From the IMG/VR virus record IMGVR_UViG_3300032038_000001, positions 128,001 through 192,000 of that record: a DNA stretch of 64,000 nt; one strand, 5' to 3'. This DNA comes from a virus (taxonomy: Duplodnaviria > Caudoviricetes). The notes under the pieces are model-generated. The model saw only the letters and a program-made list of their open reading frames with translations, searched no databases and had not been told where the DNA came from. Position numbers and translations under genes: made by a program. Shown in pieces: positions 3,613 through 50,444 of this stretch (the first letter of the stretch is position 1; each line of letters starts with the position of its first letter).

Positions 3613-3780
3613 AAGATTACCTCCTTGTAATCATACTCTGTTTTATTGACTGTGGTAAACAGAGGGAACATACAAAGTTCTGAGAAACCACTTAAATGTT
3701 TTTATGTAATAATCTATATATAACTTAACCTGATACCTTCACTATGAAGTTAGGGTAAGTTATTATATATCTTATTACAC
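3613..3780 (-). ncRNA. conserved structured 5' leader RNA, copy 1
   Basis: Homologous to 4341-4509 and 5565-5736; 39-nt identical core (3634-3672); compensatory changes in stems between copies. Confidence 0.75.
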
Positions 3781-3815
3781 GGAGATAGTATATATATGAA
3801 ATTATTAAGTTTACG
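3777..3815 (-). promoter_or_regulatory. early-type phage promoter CGTA-N17-TATATACTAT-N4-GTGT
   Basis: Same 39-nt fixed-spacing motif at six sites in the window. Confidence 0.65.
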
Positions 3816-4340: not shown

Positions 4341-4509
4341 ATGATTACCTCCTAGTAATCTTACTCTGTTTTATTGACTGTGGTAAACAGAGGGAACATA
4401 CAAAGTTCCGAGAAACCACTTAACTGTTTTTATGTAATAATCTATATAACATCTTAACTCGATACCTTCGTTATGAAGTTGAGGTAAGTTATTATATATC
4501 TTATTACAC
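4341..4509 (-). ncRNA. conserved structured 5' leader RNA, copy 2
   Basis: Identical core 4362-4400; covarying stems. Confidence 0.75.
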
Positions 4510-4544
4510 ATAAATTATATATATATGAAAATATTCAGTTTACT
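4506..4544 (-). promoter_or_regulatory. early-type phage promoter (AGTA variant)
   Basis: AGTA-N17-TATATATAAT-N4-GTGT. Confidence 0.6.
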
Positions 4545-5564: not shown

Positions 5565-5736
5565 AATAAGTACCTCCTTATTGTACTTATACTCTGTTTT
5601 ATTGACTGTGGTAAACAGAGGGAACATAAAAGTTCCGAGAAACCACTTACTGCTGTTTATGTAATAATCTATATAATATCTTAATCTGACGCCTTCGCTA
5701 TGAAGTTAGATTAAGATATCATTTATCTTATTACAC
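5565..5736 (-). ncRNA. conserved structured 5' leader RNA, copy 3
   Basis: Identical core 5590-5628; most diverged copy, retains all stems through compensatory changes. Confidence 0.75.
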
Positions 5737-5771
5737 TGAAATATTATATATATGAAATTATTAAGTTTACG
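5733..5771 (-). promoter_or_regulatory. early-type phage promoter
   Basis: CGTA-N17-TATATAATAT-N4-GTGT. Confidence 0.65.
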
Positions 5772-14943: not shown

Positions 14944-16801
14944 CAATCGGCATTCAGACCGTATTCTTTTTTAATTTATTGTTTATAAAATCTGAATGCT
15001 AATTAAATTGTATTTGAATTATTATATTGCTTTTAGTTAGTTTACTTGACTATATGTCTCTTTATAATAATTGAAAACTTTAATAAAATCTTCATTATTT
15101 TCTTTTCGTTCATTAAATTCATTGATAAATTCATTTAAAGTTAACTCTGGTATATTATCATCATATTTATCAATATAATTTTGATAAAATTTATATGCCA
15201 AATCATTTTCTATATTTGGTATTGAGAATATCCATGCAAGTATCGTATTAAGTCTCCAGTTTTCACTATCCACTTTATCCTGAAATTTATTAGTAAATAT
15301 AAGATTGGTATCAATAGCATGATGGATATTTTCATATATATCACACCATTCTAGATTTATAGCATAATTACATTCAGGATTACCATTTATATGATTAACA
15401 CAATTATATCTTTTCGGATTTTTATTTTTTACAAACATAAATGCAACTAATCTATGAATTGAAAACTCATCGAACCCATTATCGGTATTTAAAGATACCG
15501 ATAAATGACTTTGATTGCATCGATTGATATTGTGTGATTTATGAATGTTTGTATAGAAGCCCTTTGTGTTATTCCATATTCTACCAAAATTACTAATACG
15601 ATAGTCATCAATAAAATTAGTGCCTGGTATTTCTAGTTTCTTCCATTTTTCTTTACCTAAAATTGGAATATATAAAGTCGTCCACTCACGTTCTTGTTGG
15701 TGAACTTTGTTATTTACATCCCAATTATCTCCCCAATATAAGTTACTTTTATCACAATTAGTAGGGTTACCATCACGGAAAATAACTATATCTTTTCCTT
15801 CAGGTTTAGGTATAAAATGAAAAGCCACTAATCTACTCACAGAAGCATGCATTACATCAGATGAACTTTTATCGTAGTATAAGTTATATCTTAAGTAATC
15901 CTTATTTCTAGGGTCTTTAAATGGTTTAATGAACGAATCGGTATTACTATTGTAAAGTCTACCATCTTCACAAATATAATACTCGTAGTATAACTTTGTA
16001 CCTATATCCACTTTCTCCCATTCTTTGGTTTCATGATGGATATTAATTAAAGCTGTTATTCCTTTATCAATAGAAAGGTTGGATAGTTTACAGTTGTAAA
16101 TATTCCCATCAATATGATGGATATACATACCGGTTTTATAATCTGGGAAAAACATTAACACCATTAATTCATCATGATAAAAGAATTTTCGTTTGATTTT
16201 GCCATTATCAGCTATTATATTGAAAAAGATTGCAGGGCATTCATTCGGTCTTCTTTTATCATTATATGGATTTATATGATTTCCTGTAGATTTATTATAA
16301 ACCGTACCATCTTCATATATTTCATATTCATAAAGAAAATCTATATCTGGTAGTTTAATTATTTTATGCTTAATTTGATTTTCCCTCCTTAAGTTATTAT
16401 TAGCAATATAATAAATTCAAATACAATATTCTAGACTATATCTTCAATGTATATTCTTTAATAACAAATATACATAGCTGTCCGTTTCGTTTTAATAGAT
16501 TTACTTATAGCTAATCTCACTATAATACTAACCCTTAATAGGCACTACTCTACTCACTTCTTCACCCAAGTATTTCTCTTAAGCTATGCTTTCGATAGTC
16601 GTTGAACTCATATCTCCTTTATAAATTCTTTATAAAGGGATACTTTGCTGCGTCGATTGATTCAAATAAATACCTTTTTACTATACCTTTGGAGTTACCC
16701 ATTGCCATTATCATTATTACTAAGATAATTTAGTAGTATCTATTTATAGAATTCGTCCCCGCAATTAGAACAGTTTAATGTCGACCTCGCCCGTATGGTC
16801 A
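14944..16801 (-). mobile_element. group I intron 2 of the beta' gene (1858 nt), endonuclease ORF in the P9 loop
   Basis: P1 UGUCGAU/GUCGACA with U.G splice pair; core AAUUGCGGGGA, GACGCAGC, CAACGACUAUC, AAGAUAUAGUC; ~24-bp inverted repeat (15008-15031 / 16402-16426) closes the ORF. Confidence 0.9.
15037..16374 (-). CDS. intron-encoded HNH homing endonuclease with three tandem NUMOD4-HNH units, probable ATT start
   Basis: Frame stays open 70 codons upstream of ATG16164 to ATT16374, 9 nt after AAGGAGG; third unit IHRLVA...NHINGNPECNYAINLEWC. Confidence 0.8.
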   Translation of the reverse strand: MKHKIIKLPDIDFLYEYEIYEDGTVYNKSTGNHINPYNDKRRPNECPAIFFNIIADNGKIKRKFFYHDELMVLMFFPDYKTGMYIHHIDGNIYNCKLSNLSIDKGITALINIHHETKEWEKVDIGTKLYYEYYICEDGRLYNSNTDSFIKPFKDPRNKDYLRYNLYYDKSSSDVMHASVSRLVAFHFIPKPEGKDIVIFRDGNPTNCDKSNLYWGDNWDVNNKVHQQEREWTTLYIPILGKEKWKKLEIPGTNFIDDYRISNFGRIWNNTKGFYTNIHKSHNINRCNQSHLSVSLNTDNGFDEFSIHRLVAFMFVKNKNPKRYNCVNHINGNPECNYAINLEWCDIYENIHHAIDTNLIFTNKFQDKVDSENWRLNTILAWIFSIPNIENDLAYKFYQNYIDKYDDNIPELTLNEFINEFNERKENNEDFIKVFNYYKETYSQVN

Positions 16802-16885
16802 ATCGACAGTGGAACTGATAAACAGTAATCATTCTTATCATGTTTTATCTTTCTTATTTTCATAAGCAACATGCTATAAAAATTC
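16802..16885 (-). CDS. rpoC: RNA polymerase beta' N-terminal subunit, 84-nt exon 2
   Basis: (L)NFYSMLLMKIRKIKHDKNDYCLSVPLS(I); joins exons 1 and 3 in frame (1130+84+244=1458 nt, 485 aa). Confidence 0.88.
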
Positions 16886-17432
16886 CATTAACTATATAAT
16901 TCCCATTATATAACTGACTATATCATCATCTTTATATACTATTAACATATATAAAGAGCTCCCCATTTCGCTTTAATAGATTTACTTATAGCTAATCTCA
17001 CTATAATACTAACCTTGTTACAGGCGCTACTCTACTCACTTCTTTTACCAATGTATTTCTACATAGGCTATGCTTTCGATAGTCGATGAACGTTCTTATA
17101 CTAAATGATTACTTATTTCATAAATAGGGATTTCACCTATTGAAAGTGTTTTCCATATTTCGTTATCCTCATTCAATTCTATTAACTGATAATATTGCTT
17201 TAAAAATTTGGATAAAGGTTTGCGTTTTTTAGGCATATTTTTTTTCACCTCTTTTATTTTTTTAATCATTTAGTATATGCTTCGCTGCGGATTGTCTCTA
17301 TTCTCAATCTTTTTACTATACCTAAGGAGTTACCCTTCGCCCTCAAAAATATTTTGAGTTAGTAATTGAGACTTAACGAGATATCCCCGCAATTAAAGGA
17401 GTTTAACGACCTCAAATTTTTTTAGCAGCTCT
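16886..17432 (-). mobile_element. group I intron 1 of the beta' gene (547 nt)
   Basis: P1 CGACCUU/GAGGUCG; P10 AAAAAUUU/GAAUUUUU; core AAUUGCGGGGA, AAUCCGCAGC, CGACUAUC, GAUAUAGUC; P9 hairpin with GGGA loop; terminal G. Confidence 0.9.
17096..17236 (-). pseudogene. truncated NUMOD4 homing endonuclease remnant (46 aa) in the intron 1 P6 loop
   Basis: GAGGTG RBS; MPKKRKP...EIWKTLSIGEIPIYEISNHLV*; enclosed by inverted repeat TATACTAAATGATT/AATCATTTAGTATA. Confidence 0.75.
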
Positions 17433-36276: not shown

Positions 36277-36315
36277 CGTAAAATAAAAAATTATAATGAT
36301 ATATTATATATGTGT
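36277..36315 (+). promoter_or_regulatory. early-type phage promoter
   Basis: CGTA-N17-GATATATTAT-N4-GTGT. Confidence 0.6.
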
Positions 36316-36587
36316 AATAAGAAGATTATAAGCCACGTATAATCTTCACCCAGATAAACTAAGTTTAACATCAGACTGCAGCTGATGTAGAAATCTTAAA
36401 TTATGATGCTCGTGGCTTGCCGGCTTACATAATTTGAGATTCACTTAGTTATATTATATCGAAAAAGGAGTGAAAAGGTAGTTATATTATATCGAAAAAG
36501 GAGTGAAAAGGATGATTAATAGAATCAAAATTCCCTGATTAGACCGCACGTATTAATATCAATTAATACGTGCGGTCTTCTTTTTTT
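36312..36587 (+). ncRNA. candidate structured RNA with kissing-loop pseudoknot and 8-codon mini-ORF
   Basis: Own promoter and terminator (36541-36587); loops AGCCACG (36331-36337) and CGTGGCT (36411-36417) are complementary; several perfect stems. Confidence 0.65.
36446..36511 (+). repeat. perfect 33-bp tandem duplication containing an SD sequence
   Basis: TAGTTATATTATATCGAAAAAGGAGTGAAAAGG twice. Confidence 0.95.
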
Positions 36588-36646
36588 ATATTTTTTATAA
36601 AAAAAATGATGGTGAAAGTAATACTTTCACCATCATTATTATTTTT

Positions 36647-42844: not shown

Positions 42845-42883
42845 CGTATATTCAAAATAAATACATATATATTATTTTTTTGC
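42845..42883 (+). promoter_or_regulatory. early-type phage promoter
   Basis: CGTA-N17-TATATATTAT with identical spacing. Confidence 0.55.
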
Positions 42884-43114
42884 ATAAAAATAATACAAAT
42901 AAAAAATAATGGTTTTAGAGGATACGAACCATTATTCGTATTATTATCTATTTACGGGATACTTAAAAAAATAAGGAGGTGGATAAAATGTATCCTGATT
43001 TTAACGACACAGACATCGTGATTGAATAATTTCAATCACAACATGAAACCGTAAATAGATATGTAAAAAGATACAATATAATCGAGAGTAAAGATTATAT
43101 TGTATCTTTTTTTT
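42880..43114 (+). ncRNA. candidate structured RNA enclosing SD and 13-codon mini-ORF (MYPDFNDTDIVIE, 42988-43029)
   Basis: 13-bp stem 42945-42957/43049-43061 encloses AAGGAGGT and the ORF; 5' hairpin; terminator 43065-43114. Confidence 0.6.
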
Positions 43115-43513: not shown

Positions 43514-44701
43514 CAATATAGACTATATCATCATCTTCATATTCTATTATCAAATATGAAGAGCTCCCCATTTCGTTTTAATAGAATTACATATGGCTAA
43601 TATCACCATAAAACTAACCTATAAATAGGCACTACTCTACTCACTTCTTTACTTAAGTATTTCTCTTAAGCTATGCTTTCGATAGTCGTTGAACCTTGCT
43701 CTTAATAAGAGCCTTGGCTGCGGATTGTCTCTATTCTTAACCTTTTTACTATACCTAAGGAATTACCCTTCGCCACTAATATAAATATTAGTTTAGTAGT
43801 TAAGACCTAACGAGAGTTCCCCGCAATTAAAGGAGTTTATCCCGGTCCTCATGATGACTGTTTTTAATTTTTGATTTTATATATTTAACTCGTCCCCTAT
43901 TAAGTTCGGTATATTCCCAACCCATTTTTATCACCGTCTCTTTAACAGAATGATTTTTTAATAATCTTTCAATTTTTTTTATTTCTTCATATGATAAAAT
44001 GGAACTGAATTTTCTAATCTTTGGGAAATTGTAATTTTTACTAATAGATTTCCAGGTATCTCCACGCCTTATGTGTAATATAAAATCATACCCATATCCA
44101 TATTTAGCTTGGATTTTTTTAGGTGACATACCGGATTCTAAAAGTTCACATACTTTTTTAACATCTTGCTTTGTATGTGTAGATAAATTACATGTTTCAG
44201 AACCAACTATATTTGGACTTTTTAAACCATTTTTATATGCCCTAGAATTATTTTCTGAATAGGTACACCATTCTAAATTGTCTAATTTATAATTCATTTT
44301 ATTTCCATCCAGATGATCTATCACAGAATAATTGTGAGGATTTTCAATAAATGCGTTAGCAACTAGTCGGTGTATGGTTTTAGTTTTATATTTACCTTTT
44401 TTACCTAGTTGTATATTGATAGCCGGATATTGTAAACTTCTGGAGGATGGATTCATGTTAATCTTAAGTTTTTTATTAGTCTTAATATTATATACATTTC
44501 CATCCTGTGTTATCATATAATTCGTATCTTTATCATTTATAGTTATTATTTTACCAATGACACCATTTTCGAGTAATATTAATGATGAATAAAAACACGA
44601 ATCATAATTTCTGATAATATAAATATATGACATTAAATCAACTCCTATTAAATAATTATTGACTTGTTGTGCATGTATTTATCCAGATTACATTTTTTTT
44701 G
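43514..44701 (-). mobile_element. group I intron in terL (1188 nt), endonuclease ORF in the P1 loop
   Basis: P1 CCCGGUU/GACCGGG; 12-bp P10 AGUCAUCAUGAG/UUCAUGAUGACU; core closely similar to beta' intron 1. Confidence 0.9.
43827..44633 (-). CDS. intron-encoded HNH homing endonuclease
   Basis: YMITQDGNVYN, TIHRLVANAFI, IDHLDGNKMNYKLDNLEWCTYSEN; AGGAG RBS; internal AACA-N6-TA at 44657-44668. Confidence 0.9.
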   Translation of the reverse strand: MSYIYIIRNYDSCFYSSLILLENGVIGKIITINDKDTNYMITQDGNVYNIKTNKKLKINMNPSSRSLQYPAINIQLGKKGKYKTKTIHRLVANAFIENPHNYSVIDHLDGNKMNYKLDNLEWCTYSENNSRAYKNGLKSPNIVGSETCNLSTHTKQDVKKVCELLESGMSPKKIQAKYGYGYDFILHIRRGDTWKSISKNYNFPKIRKFSSILSYEEIKKIERLLKNHSVKETVIKMGWEYTELNRGRVKYIKSKIKNSHHEDRDKLL

Positions 44702-48483: not shown

Positions 48484-49380
48484 TTAAATCAACCCAGACG
48501 CTTTTCCTTTATTTAATTCCATATTAATTCCATTTAAGATATTTATTATTATACGTGTTAAAAAACTTGAAATTTTCTTTACGAATTCAGAAAATTTAGC
48601 GGTAACCTTTTGCATTACACTTATTTTCTTATTAGCCGTGCCAGATTCATCTATCTTCTTATTAGCCGTGCCAGATTCATTAATCTCAACATCATCAACT
48701 TTAGCTTCTGTTTGTTTCTGTAATTTACGAACATGTTTATCAGCATCTTCCATCATAGCTATTAAACGCTTATTATTCTCTTCAATGATTGACATATCAC
48801 AGCATATTCCAATAGACTGCCAATCTTCAGATGTCCAATTGAAAAATGCATCAACACTACCGATATTTTTTGATCTAAGAATAGATTCAGCTTCTTTTTC
48901 ATACTTAGAAAATATTTCATCAGCTTCAGAAGCGGATGAGCTATTTAAAATAGCAGTTGCAGTCTTTTCGCTTAATCGTGATATTTTAACATATGCATCT
49001 TCAGCATTTTTTATCATTTTCATTACATATTTAGCCGCATCCTTGTTCATTGTTCCACTTTTAACCATATCTTTAAACTGTTCTTTTTTAATCTTATTTA
49101 ATTCTTTAAATCCCTTTTTCAGTTTTATATCAGCCATTTTTTCTCGAATGGATGTAATACACTTATTAATAAAATCACGAATAGCCTTAATTATAGCATT
49201 AAATGTTTTCTTAATCTTCTCTTTAACTTCAGCAGTACCTTCATACATAACACTTTCTGAATATATAGCAGACTCGACAGTATAAACGCCCAGGGCATAT
49301 TCAAAGAATGTATTAATCTTAGCAAGATTAATATCAAATTCTTTCTCATAAATAGATAATTCTTTCATGATTATAAACAC
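48484..49380 (-). CDS. putative internal head protein, paralog A
   Basis: 298 aa, highly similar to 49527..50444; N-terminal YSES/MYEG motifs. Confidence 0.7.
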   Translation of the reverse strand: MFIIMKELSIYEKEFDINLAKINTFFEYALGVYTVESAIYSESVMYEGTAEVKEKIKKTFNAIIKAIRDFINKCITSIREKMADIKLKKGFKELNKIKKEQFKDMVKSGTMNKDAAKYVMKMIKNAEDAYVKISRLSEKTATAILNSSSASEADEIFSKYEKEAESILRSKNIGSVDAFFNWTSEDWQSIGICCDMSIIEENNKRLIAMMEDADKHVRKLQKQTEAKVDDVEINESGTANKKIDESGTANKKISVMQKVTAKFSEFVKKISSFLTRIIINILNGINMELNKGKASGLI

Positions 49381-49526
49381 TCCTTGTTTAAAAATATTTA
49401 TATTATTGTCATTTTTATCCCATCACTGAAGAAATTATATTTTTTAATCAATTCATGTAACTTGCGGTTACTAAATAAAAAATAAGCTAAGAGAATTAAA
49501 TTCTCTTAGCTTATTCTTTTTTACAA

Positions 49527-50444
49527 TTAATTATCTTCAGTCTGTTTTGTTTGTCTTGATTGTTTAGGTTGTTTAGTTTTTAACACGTAACCTTTCCTTT
49601 CAGTTAAAACCATATTAATTCCACGCATGATATTTATTGTTATACGTGTTAAAAGGCTTGAAATTTTCTTTACAATTTCAGAAAATTTAGCGGCAATCTT
49701 TTGTATTACAATTATCTTTTCATTAGCTACACCAGAATCATCAATCTCAGCATCATCAACTTTAGATTCTGCCTGTTCCTTTAATTTTTGAACATGATCG
49801 TTGGCATCACGCATCATAGCTGTTAAACGTTTATTATTCCCTTCAATGATTGACATATCACAGTATATTCCAATAGACTGCCAATCACTAGATGTATAGT
49901 TGCTAAATACTGTAACATCACCAGTAATTTGTTCTGATTTAAGAATAGATTCGCACTCTTTTTCATACTTAGCTAATATTTCATCAGCTTCAGCAATGGA
50001 TGAACTATTTAAAGTATCAGCTACAGACTTTTCGGTTAATCGTGATATTTTAACGTATGCATCTTCAGCATTTTTTATCATTTTCATTATATCTTTAGCG
50101 GCATCCTTGTTCATTTTTCCACTTTTAATCATATCTTTAAACTGTTCTTTTTTAATCTTGTTAAATTCTTTAAAACCTTTTTTCAGTTTTGCGTCAGCCA
50201 TCTTTTCTCGAATAGATTCGATACACTTATTGATAAATTCATGAATAGCCTTAATTATGGCATCAAATGTTCTCTTAATTTTCTCTTTAACCTCAGCGGT
50301 ACCTTCATATATGACACTTTCTGAATATATAGCAGACTCTGCAGCGTAAACGCCGAAAGCATATTCAAAGAATGTATTAATCTTACCAAGGTTAATATCG
50401 AATTCTTTTTCATAAATAGTTAATTCTTTCATGGTTATAAACAC
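49527..50444 (-). CDS. putative internal head protein, paralog B
   Basis: 305 aa tandem duplicate, including promoter and terminator. Confidence 0.7.
   Translation of the reverse strand: MFITMKELTIYEKEFDINLGKINTFFEYAFGVYAAESAIYSESVIYEGTAEVKEKIKRTFDAIIKAIHEFINKCIESIREKMADAKLKKGFKEFNKIKKEQFKDMIKSGKMNKDAAKDIMKMIKNAEDAYVKISRLTEKSVADTLNSSSIAEADEILAKYEKECESILKSEQITGDVTVFSNYTSSDWQSIGIYCDMSIIEGNNKRLTAMMRDANDHVQKLKEQAESKVDDAEIDDSGVANEKIIVIQKIAAKFSEIVKKISSLLTRITINIMRGINMVLTERKGYVLKTKQPKQSRQTKQTEDN

Follow-up and report, generated by a model that had tools for sequence, protein, structure and literature searches.

Phages can carry morons, independent promoter-gene-terminator units that lie between other genes (PMC3594210), and minigenes of 3-8 codons are known to inhibit translation (PMC2490762). 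Among structured RNAs, OLE and GOLLD use palindromic loops for contacts from one copy to another (bioRxiv 10.1101/2024.12.08.627333), and RNAs under 200 nt, such as manA and EGFOA, can form oligomers (bioRxiv 10.64898/2026.07.01.735769). The window analyzed here, a stretch of 64,000 nucleotides, is part of a virus genome record of 250,395 bases (~250 kb), and the runs that contain this genome are from cattle and sheep gut. We identify its phage as an AR9/phiKZ-like rumen jumbo phage; among named phages, AR9, PBS1, and BpSp come nearest to it, at 26-28% identity, and its genome holds two RNA polymerase beta-type genes. To our knowledge, almost nothing is known about the non-coding RNAs of such phages. 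Between the portal and tail tube genes of this phage, the original prediction described an early RNA with a kissing-loop pseudoknot and a short ORF, either a dedicated RNA of ~275 nt, a minigene, or a leader that had lost its gene. Our analysis points to a genuine structured RNA, not described before, that sits in a moron-like early cassette and is best read as an orphan structured early RNA that would act through the RNA itself, ribosome loading being an accessory.

An early cassette in the portal-tube gap

The cassette comprises, in this order, an early promoter, a folded core of ~135 nt, an SD, an ORF of 8 codons, and a terminator (Table 1), and all of the parts listed in the original prediction, including the portal and tail tube flanks, were in place when we checked the sequence. 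The preceding portal gene matches the phiKZ gp129 structure and the AR9/PBS1 portal, and the tail tube gene follows on the opposite strand. The element follows the portal stop with no terminator in between, and cassette sequence would also end the late portal mRNA. Relatives whose portals are 91% and 86% identical have nothing but the two-way terminator in the gap, as do ~35 more distant phages, which argues that the kissing-loop element is an accessory insertion. The same gap in phage L218 holds another early cassette (L218:12480-12905), composed of a small pseudoknot-like leader and a membrane-protein-like ORF of 110 codons.

Table 1. Features of the portal-tube gap, with positions in the window
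Feature	Position	Strand	Description
Early (virion-RNAP type) promoter, predicted	36277..36313	+	CGTAAA, 17 nt, TATATTAT, 6 nt, then +1 G36314
RNA 5' end, predicted	36314..36320	+	possible weak pairing with 36452-36457 (P0)
P1 hairpin	36321..36347	+	10 bp; invariant 7-nt loop L1 at 36331-36337
Three-way junction	36357..36450	+	P2 (36357-36364/36443-36450), P3, AGA linker (36389-36391), P4
P3 hairpin	36368..36388	+	invariant loop L3 (36375-36381) with palindrome CUGCAG
P4 hairpin	36392..36441	+	stem of 14 bp versus 9 bp plus 2+2 between species; paired in both
Putative kissing strand in P4	36411..36417	+	7-nt complement of L1
33-bp tandem duplication with SD	36446..36511	+	copies 36446-36478/36479-36511; a single copy is part of the conserved element
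Mini-ORF	36512..36538	+	MINRIKIP, 8 codons (7 in L230, L285); stop TGA or TAA
Intrinsic terminator	36541..36587	+	stem 36541-36578, 17 bp, then U-tract
Ancestral two-way terminator, portal/tube gap	36605..36637	.	sole gap content in relatives

The promoter was called solely by its match to the AR9 early consensus, AAATATATATTAT-6N-G (PMC5312081), with which it agrees at 11/13 positions, with the 6N-G spacing kept and +1 placed at G36314. Its layout is conserved in all full-length variants of the element and equals that found ahead of a family of nine early leaders of the same genome. These leaders, ~200 nt long and pseudoknotted, are fused to unrelated genes at 3613-3815, 4341-4544, and 5565-5771 of the window and at six more places in the genome; a divergent copy (genome 89895-90085) has changes in both strands of its first stem, and blastn gave no match to the family in four related records. 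Similarity between the element and the nine leaders is confined to query positions 1-46, that is, the promoter and the first 9 transcribed bases. An 11-nt 5' word that the original prediction took to connect the element to three leaders is indeed common to them, but it varies among the element's homologs and represents promoter and start-site sequence rather than leader homology. The leader-family traits (a long 5' hairpin, an H-type pseudoknot, an SD hairpin, and fusion to a gene) are absent from the element.

The predicted transcript is 274 nt long in the window and shorter, about 241-255 nt, in every other variant. The 33-bp tandem repeat noted in the original prediction is perfect in the window, but it is skipped in three near-identical runs (X2, X4, and X8) and in contigs L230 and L285, which indicates that the duplication is private to one strain or assembly. 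The terminator stem of 17 bp extends to as many as 24 bp in the sister species, with one two-sided change. Contigs of RNA run X13 cover the tube gene from 36655 and do not cover the element, and such contigs show presence, not absence.

Searches beyond this gap gave little. The element is known from one locus in two sister species, with no sign of horizontal spread among unrelated phages, and 38 related phage records, of which 16 are near complete, gave no match to it. Pattern searches returned chance matches or the L004 contig only, both in IMG/VR (among the matches listed) and in metagenomes and GTDB, as did blastn in phages and plasmids. A covariance model found no homolog in 40 phage records, in which a 19.5-bit match sits within a terminase ORF, and none in 140 Clostridia genomes with partial scoring; no search yielded a copy that precedes a longer gene. 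Rfam 15, which the original prediction had suggested consulting, has no match for the element at the gathering threshold (riboswitches, ribozymes, ROOL, GOLLD, manA, SRP, 6S, and tmRNA included), and ARAGORN made no call.

Other features of the genome are recorded here in their own right. Repeated group I intron-like cores (families D12, D13, and D15) lie at 16459-17360 and 43521-43793 of the window, with a further copy at genome 71274-71562, and Rfam does not call them at the gathering threshold. Two copies of a G-cluster with a long purine tract, origin- or RNA-like, occupy non-coding gaps in opposite orientation (genome 63354-63680 and 221296-221788). Three ORF-free, terminator-closed segments of raised GC (genome 51450-51865, 50500-50830, and 111958-112303) are candidate non-coding RNAs. 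Finally, window 48484-50444 holds two paralogous genes of ~300 aa, with DNA about 80-86% alike and a matching terminator after each (D5, D7, D11, and I1).

Conservation and predicted fold

We recovered homologs through the flanking proteins, in the same portal-tube gap. The 10 full-length variants belong to two uncultured sister species of rumen jumbo phage: the window's species (the window, L230, and L285) and its sister (the L004 group, L212, L215, L216, L278, L279, and L286). Flanking genes differ at 11-24% of their four-fold degenerate sites between the two species, and the element is 74% identical overall. Its core helices and loops are identical at 67/72 positions (93%), compared with 64/121 (53%) in the linkers, P4 stem, SD tail, and terminator loop, a division of segments that was defined after the data had been seen. 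One-sided changes in the core helices produce G-U pairs on the + strand in 8/9 cases (p about 0.02). A DNA-level role, such as origin or operator, was rejected because the changes favour G-U on one strand. Specifically, P1 changed from U-A to U-G and at its terminal pair, P3 of the sister species lost one G-C pair on both sides, and P4 was rebuilt in sequence and length and is still paired in both species. P0 is weak, with 4-6 bp and 0 to -3.8 kcal/mol across variants. Two-sided covariation was absent from the kiss, P1, P2, and P3 among these 10 variants of two close species.

With the terminator excluded, the core folds with z = -5.0 in the window and with -1.5 and -2.0 in two sister-species variants; for the minus strand of L004, shuffled sequences fold just as well. 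The conservation, the strand-specific G-U changes, the promoter, and the terminator together support the dedicated structured RNA of ~275 nt in the original prediction, as a putative transcript, and we consider it highly probable that an early transcript with P1 and the three-way junction is made.

The exact 7-nt complementarity of L1 and the P4 tip was confirmed. L1 is invariant, its partner strand changed once, from G-C to G-U, and the two strands are 100% paired in all full-length homologs, so the loss of complementarity that would have spoken against the original prediction did not appear. The kiss strands are identical at 13/14 positions (p about 0.002 against the rate of the variable segments). 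When P4 is considered by itself, conservation of the kiss strand is not significantly higher (p 0.17), and loop invariance alone is not significant against the four-fold-site rate of 11-24%. In a post hoc test, a loop/loop complement of 7 bp arose in 0.15% of loop-letter shuffles. When we scored the kiss as a duplex and by constrained folding, the duplex energy was -10.9 / -8.6 kcal/mol, and leaving both kiss strands free cost 0-2.3 kcal/mol. Because no two-sided change occurred in the kiss, its support comes from preservation and not from covariation. Overall, these observations strongly suggest that the kiss between L1 and the P4 tip forms, and we regard it as likely. The second invariant loop, L3, could pair with itself through its palindrome (self-duplex of -8.7 kcal/mol), and a palindromic 6-mer is expected in a 7-nt loop in about 4% of cases by chance; pairing of L3 with the P4 loop is possible in L004 only.

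In addition, contig L281 carries, in its copy of the element (L281:2571-2712), a 58-nt deletion that removes the promoter, the P1 5' strand, and L1. Contig L283 breaks at the same junction, which suggests that this deleted form probably exists in nature. Since L281 has neither promoter nor L1, the element appears to be dispensable, at least in this one variant.

Mini-ORF, proposed role, and alternatives

The mini-ORF occurs as MINRIKIP, MIRIKIP, MIGIKIP, MFTIIKIP, MITIIKIP, MIAIIKIP, and MFAIIKIP. Every variant keeps the AUG, the frame, a stop, and the SD spacing, with the SD 7-9 nt before the AUG; the single indel leaves the frame intact, and both TGA and TAA occur as the stop. The last four codons are invariant at every base, and codons 2-4 vary freely. 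A 39-codon ORF at genome 233491 (+) starts with MSTFKIKIP and resembles MFTIIKIP, probably by chance (10 IKIP in six frames).

A second stand-alone early unit (window 42845-43114, +; 42845-43029 as the unit), with its own early promoter, lies in the same genome. Its 13-codon ORF (42988-43029, MYPDFNDTDIVIE), 6.5 kb from the element, is conserved in eight phages, and homologs of 12-14 codons occupy the same gap in L210, L221, L211, L218, L395, L396, and L397. The acidic motif D/E-D-T/S-x-I/V persists in these homologs, alongside synonymous changes, and longer ORFs in L400-L402 end in a similar acidic tail. The ORF is thus well supported as a conserved micropeptide, spread more widely than the kissing-loop element. 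Between the same two species, this micropeptide shows 5 synonymous and 2 replacement changes, and the mini-ORF 0 synonymous and 5 non-synonymous ones (Fisher p 0.03, on small numbers). Selection therefore seems to target the RNA, or the act of translating it, and not the mini-ORF peptide. Translation of the mini-ORF is plausible. Hence, of the minigene in the original prediction, the SD, AUG, frame, and stop stand, but the peptide is not evolving as a selected peptide would.

We propose that one small phage lineage carries the element as an accessory RNA gene resembling a moron. Going by the AR9 consensus, the virion RNA polymerase would make an RNA of ~250 nt early in infection. The working part would be the 5' ~135 nt, in which the P1 loop would pair over 7 bp with the tip of a junction arm; this kiss is likely and could form in cis or in trans. 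The resulting compact, nuclease-resistant fold would most likely bind a host or phage protein as a decoy or scaffold, to which the invariant P3 loop and the AGA junction might be presented. The SD and mini-ORF may load ribosomes on the 3' tail, which would serve RNA protection or a link to translation rather than a bioactive peptide. This proposal, a decoy or scaffold that binds protein and takes up ribosomes on its tail, is tentative, and we give it a little less than even credence.

Alternatively, the fold might be a structured 5' leader that controls a micropeptide or minigene, with the kissing fold sensing a ligand or protein or stabilising the mRNA. The output, M-x(2-3)-IKIP-stop, might be an active peptide, ribosomes stalled at Pro-stop, or, as in lambda bar, drop-off of peptidyl-tRNA. 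The constancy of the SD at 7-9 nt despite a diverged tail, the in-frame indel, the stop swaps, and the invariant last four codons are in line with this, and an AUG, frame, and stop that are never broken fit a coding role too. The size of the ORF falls within the translation-inhibiting range of minigenes (PMC2490762), the same genome carries the true micropeptide unit described above, and three sister-species variants place the AUG in the loop of a 5-bp hairpin with a two-sided change. This hairpin is missing from the window's species, however, the sense codons show no synonymous change while codons 2-4 are free, and no alternative fold connects the core to the SD, with SD/anti-SD pairing of only -4 to -5 kcal/mol. 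We consider such a leader possible but unlikely.

A less probable arrangement, in our estimate, is a new class of short phage RNA that forms an RNA-only oligomer held by two loop contacts, together with a ribosome-loading minigene, and that would capture ribosomes or a host factor within the first minutes of infection. One contact might join L1 to the P4 tip, perhaps of another copy, and the other might be self-pairing of the palindromic P3 loop.

It is more doubtful still that the element is an antisense RNA acting in trans. Pairing with RBSs or with the GUGGU strand of leaders would then fall to L1 or to the 14 invariant C/U-rich nt that precede the terminator. The GUGGU targets would be the nine early leaders, and the kiss would be a lock hiding L1. 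sRNA seeds often sit just before the terminator, where a block of 12-14 nt is here invariant at the nucleotide level, and L1 can form 6-7 bp with 8/9 leaders. However, the GUGGU strand is already engaged in the pseudoknot of the leader itself, the divergent leader offers no match, and the genome contains the 6-mer target 110 times. In addition, 25% of the shuffled seeds match phage start regions as well as the best seed does. Targets of L1, L3, the P4 loop, and the 3' block in phage start regions showed no convincing excess over shuffles; the best target of L1, inside a coding start, was matched in 1/60 shuffles, with five segments tried.

That the element is a decaying relic, a leader cassette with its cargo gene deleted and conserved by recent common descent only, is very improbable. 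The narrow distribution, the promoter/L1 deletion of L281, the private duplication in the window, and a portal-tube gap that accepts gene cassettes (L218) would suit it. Against it, changes keep pairing and concentrate outside the core. The lost-cargo leader of the original prediction likewise finds no backing, as only the promoter is shared with the nine-copy family and no copy precedes a longer gene.

Least probable of all, even taken together, are a self-cleaving ribozyme, a pRNA-like packaging RNA, and an RNA anti-CRISPR: the kiss and junction recall the VS ribozyme and phi29 pRNA, the portal is next door, and the P3 region has an outline like a clostridial CRISPR repeat, but Rfam gives no match (known self-cleaving classes included), the element is missing from the gap of 91%-identical relatives and from the 38 related records, which would not be expected of an essential packaging RNA, the repeat likeness ranks 460-1288 of 125,178 genome windows, and L278 deletes its first bases. 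Read as a CRISPR-repeat mimic, P3 was at chance level against a real clostridial array, and its likeness to the one similar repeat among 401 Clostridia genomes and to Rfam repeats was not significant, so we put this likeness down to chance. Two further readings were rejected: a hammerhead-like CUGAUG..GAAA, which has no stem II and is not conserved, and a Type III antitoxin RNA, as the tandem repeat is assembly-private and no gene follows on that strand.

Comparison with known systems

The core of 135 nt, its natural variants, the predicted tertiary contact, and the palindromic loop make in vitro tests of structure, assembly, and cleavage feasible. Together with the 13-codon micropeptide unit, the element suggests that such phages employ early units whose tiny ORFs are missed by annotation, and its narrow range and dispensability limit its general importance.

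Like an RNA anti-CRISPR (PMC10651486), the element is a small phage RNA that occupies an intergenic gap and immediately follows a promoter, but in the tests run it has no significant likeness to CRISPR repeats. With lambda bar-type minigenes (PMC2490762), it has in common a phage origin and an SD with an ORF in the 3-8 codon range; it differs in a length at which such minigenes are longest and weakest, in the large conserved fold ahead of the ORF, and in having no conserved rare-codon pair. The phi29 pRNA (PMC3753930) is also a small phage RNA with a three-way junction, two complementary loops, and the portal as neighbour. In pRNA, both loops sit on junction arms and the RNA is essential for packaging, whereas here L1 is on a separate 5' hairpin and the element is missing from the gap in close relatives (91%). 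ROOL, GOLLD, OLE, manA, and EGFOA resemble it in their phage or gut origin, their kissing and palindromic loops, and the lack of an assigned function. Unlike them, the element has a core of only ~135 nt, no Rfam match, and an SD with a mini-ORF, and does not lie beside tRNAs; its assembly into oligomers is no more than a possibility. Overall, it is the phage moron that it recalls in its own promoter and terminator, in flanking genes that are adjacent in relatives, and in its patchy distribution, with the difference that its cargo would be a folded RNA with an ORF of 7-8 codons, carried by a lytic jumbo phage behind a putative virion-RNAP promoter.
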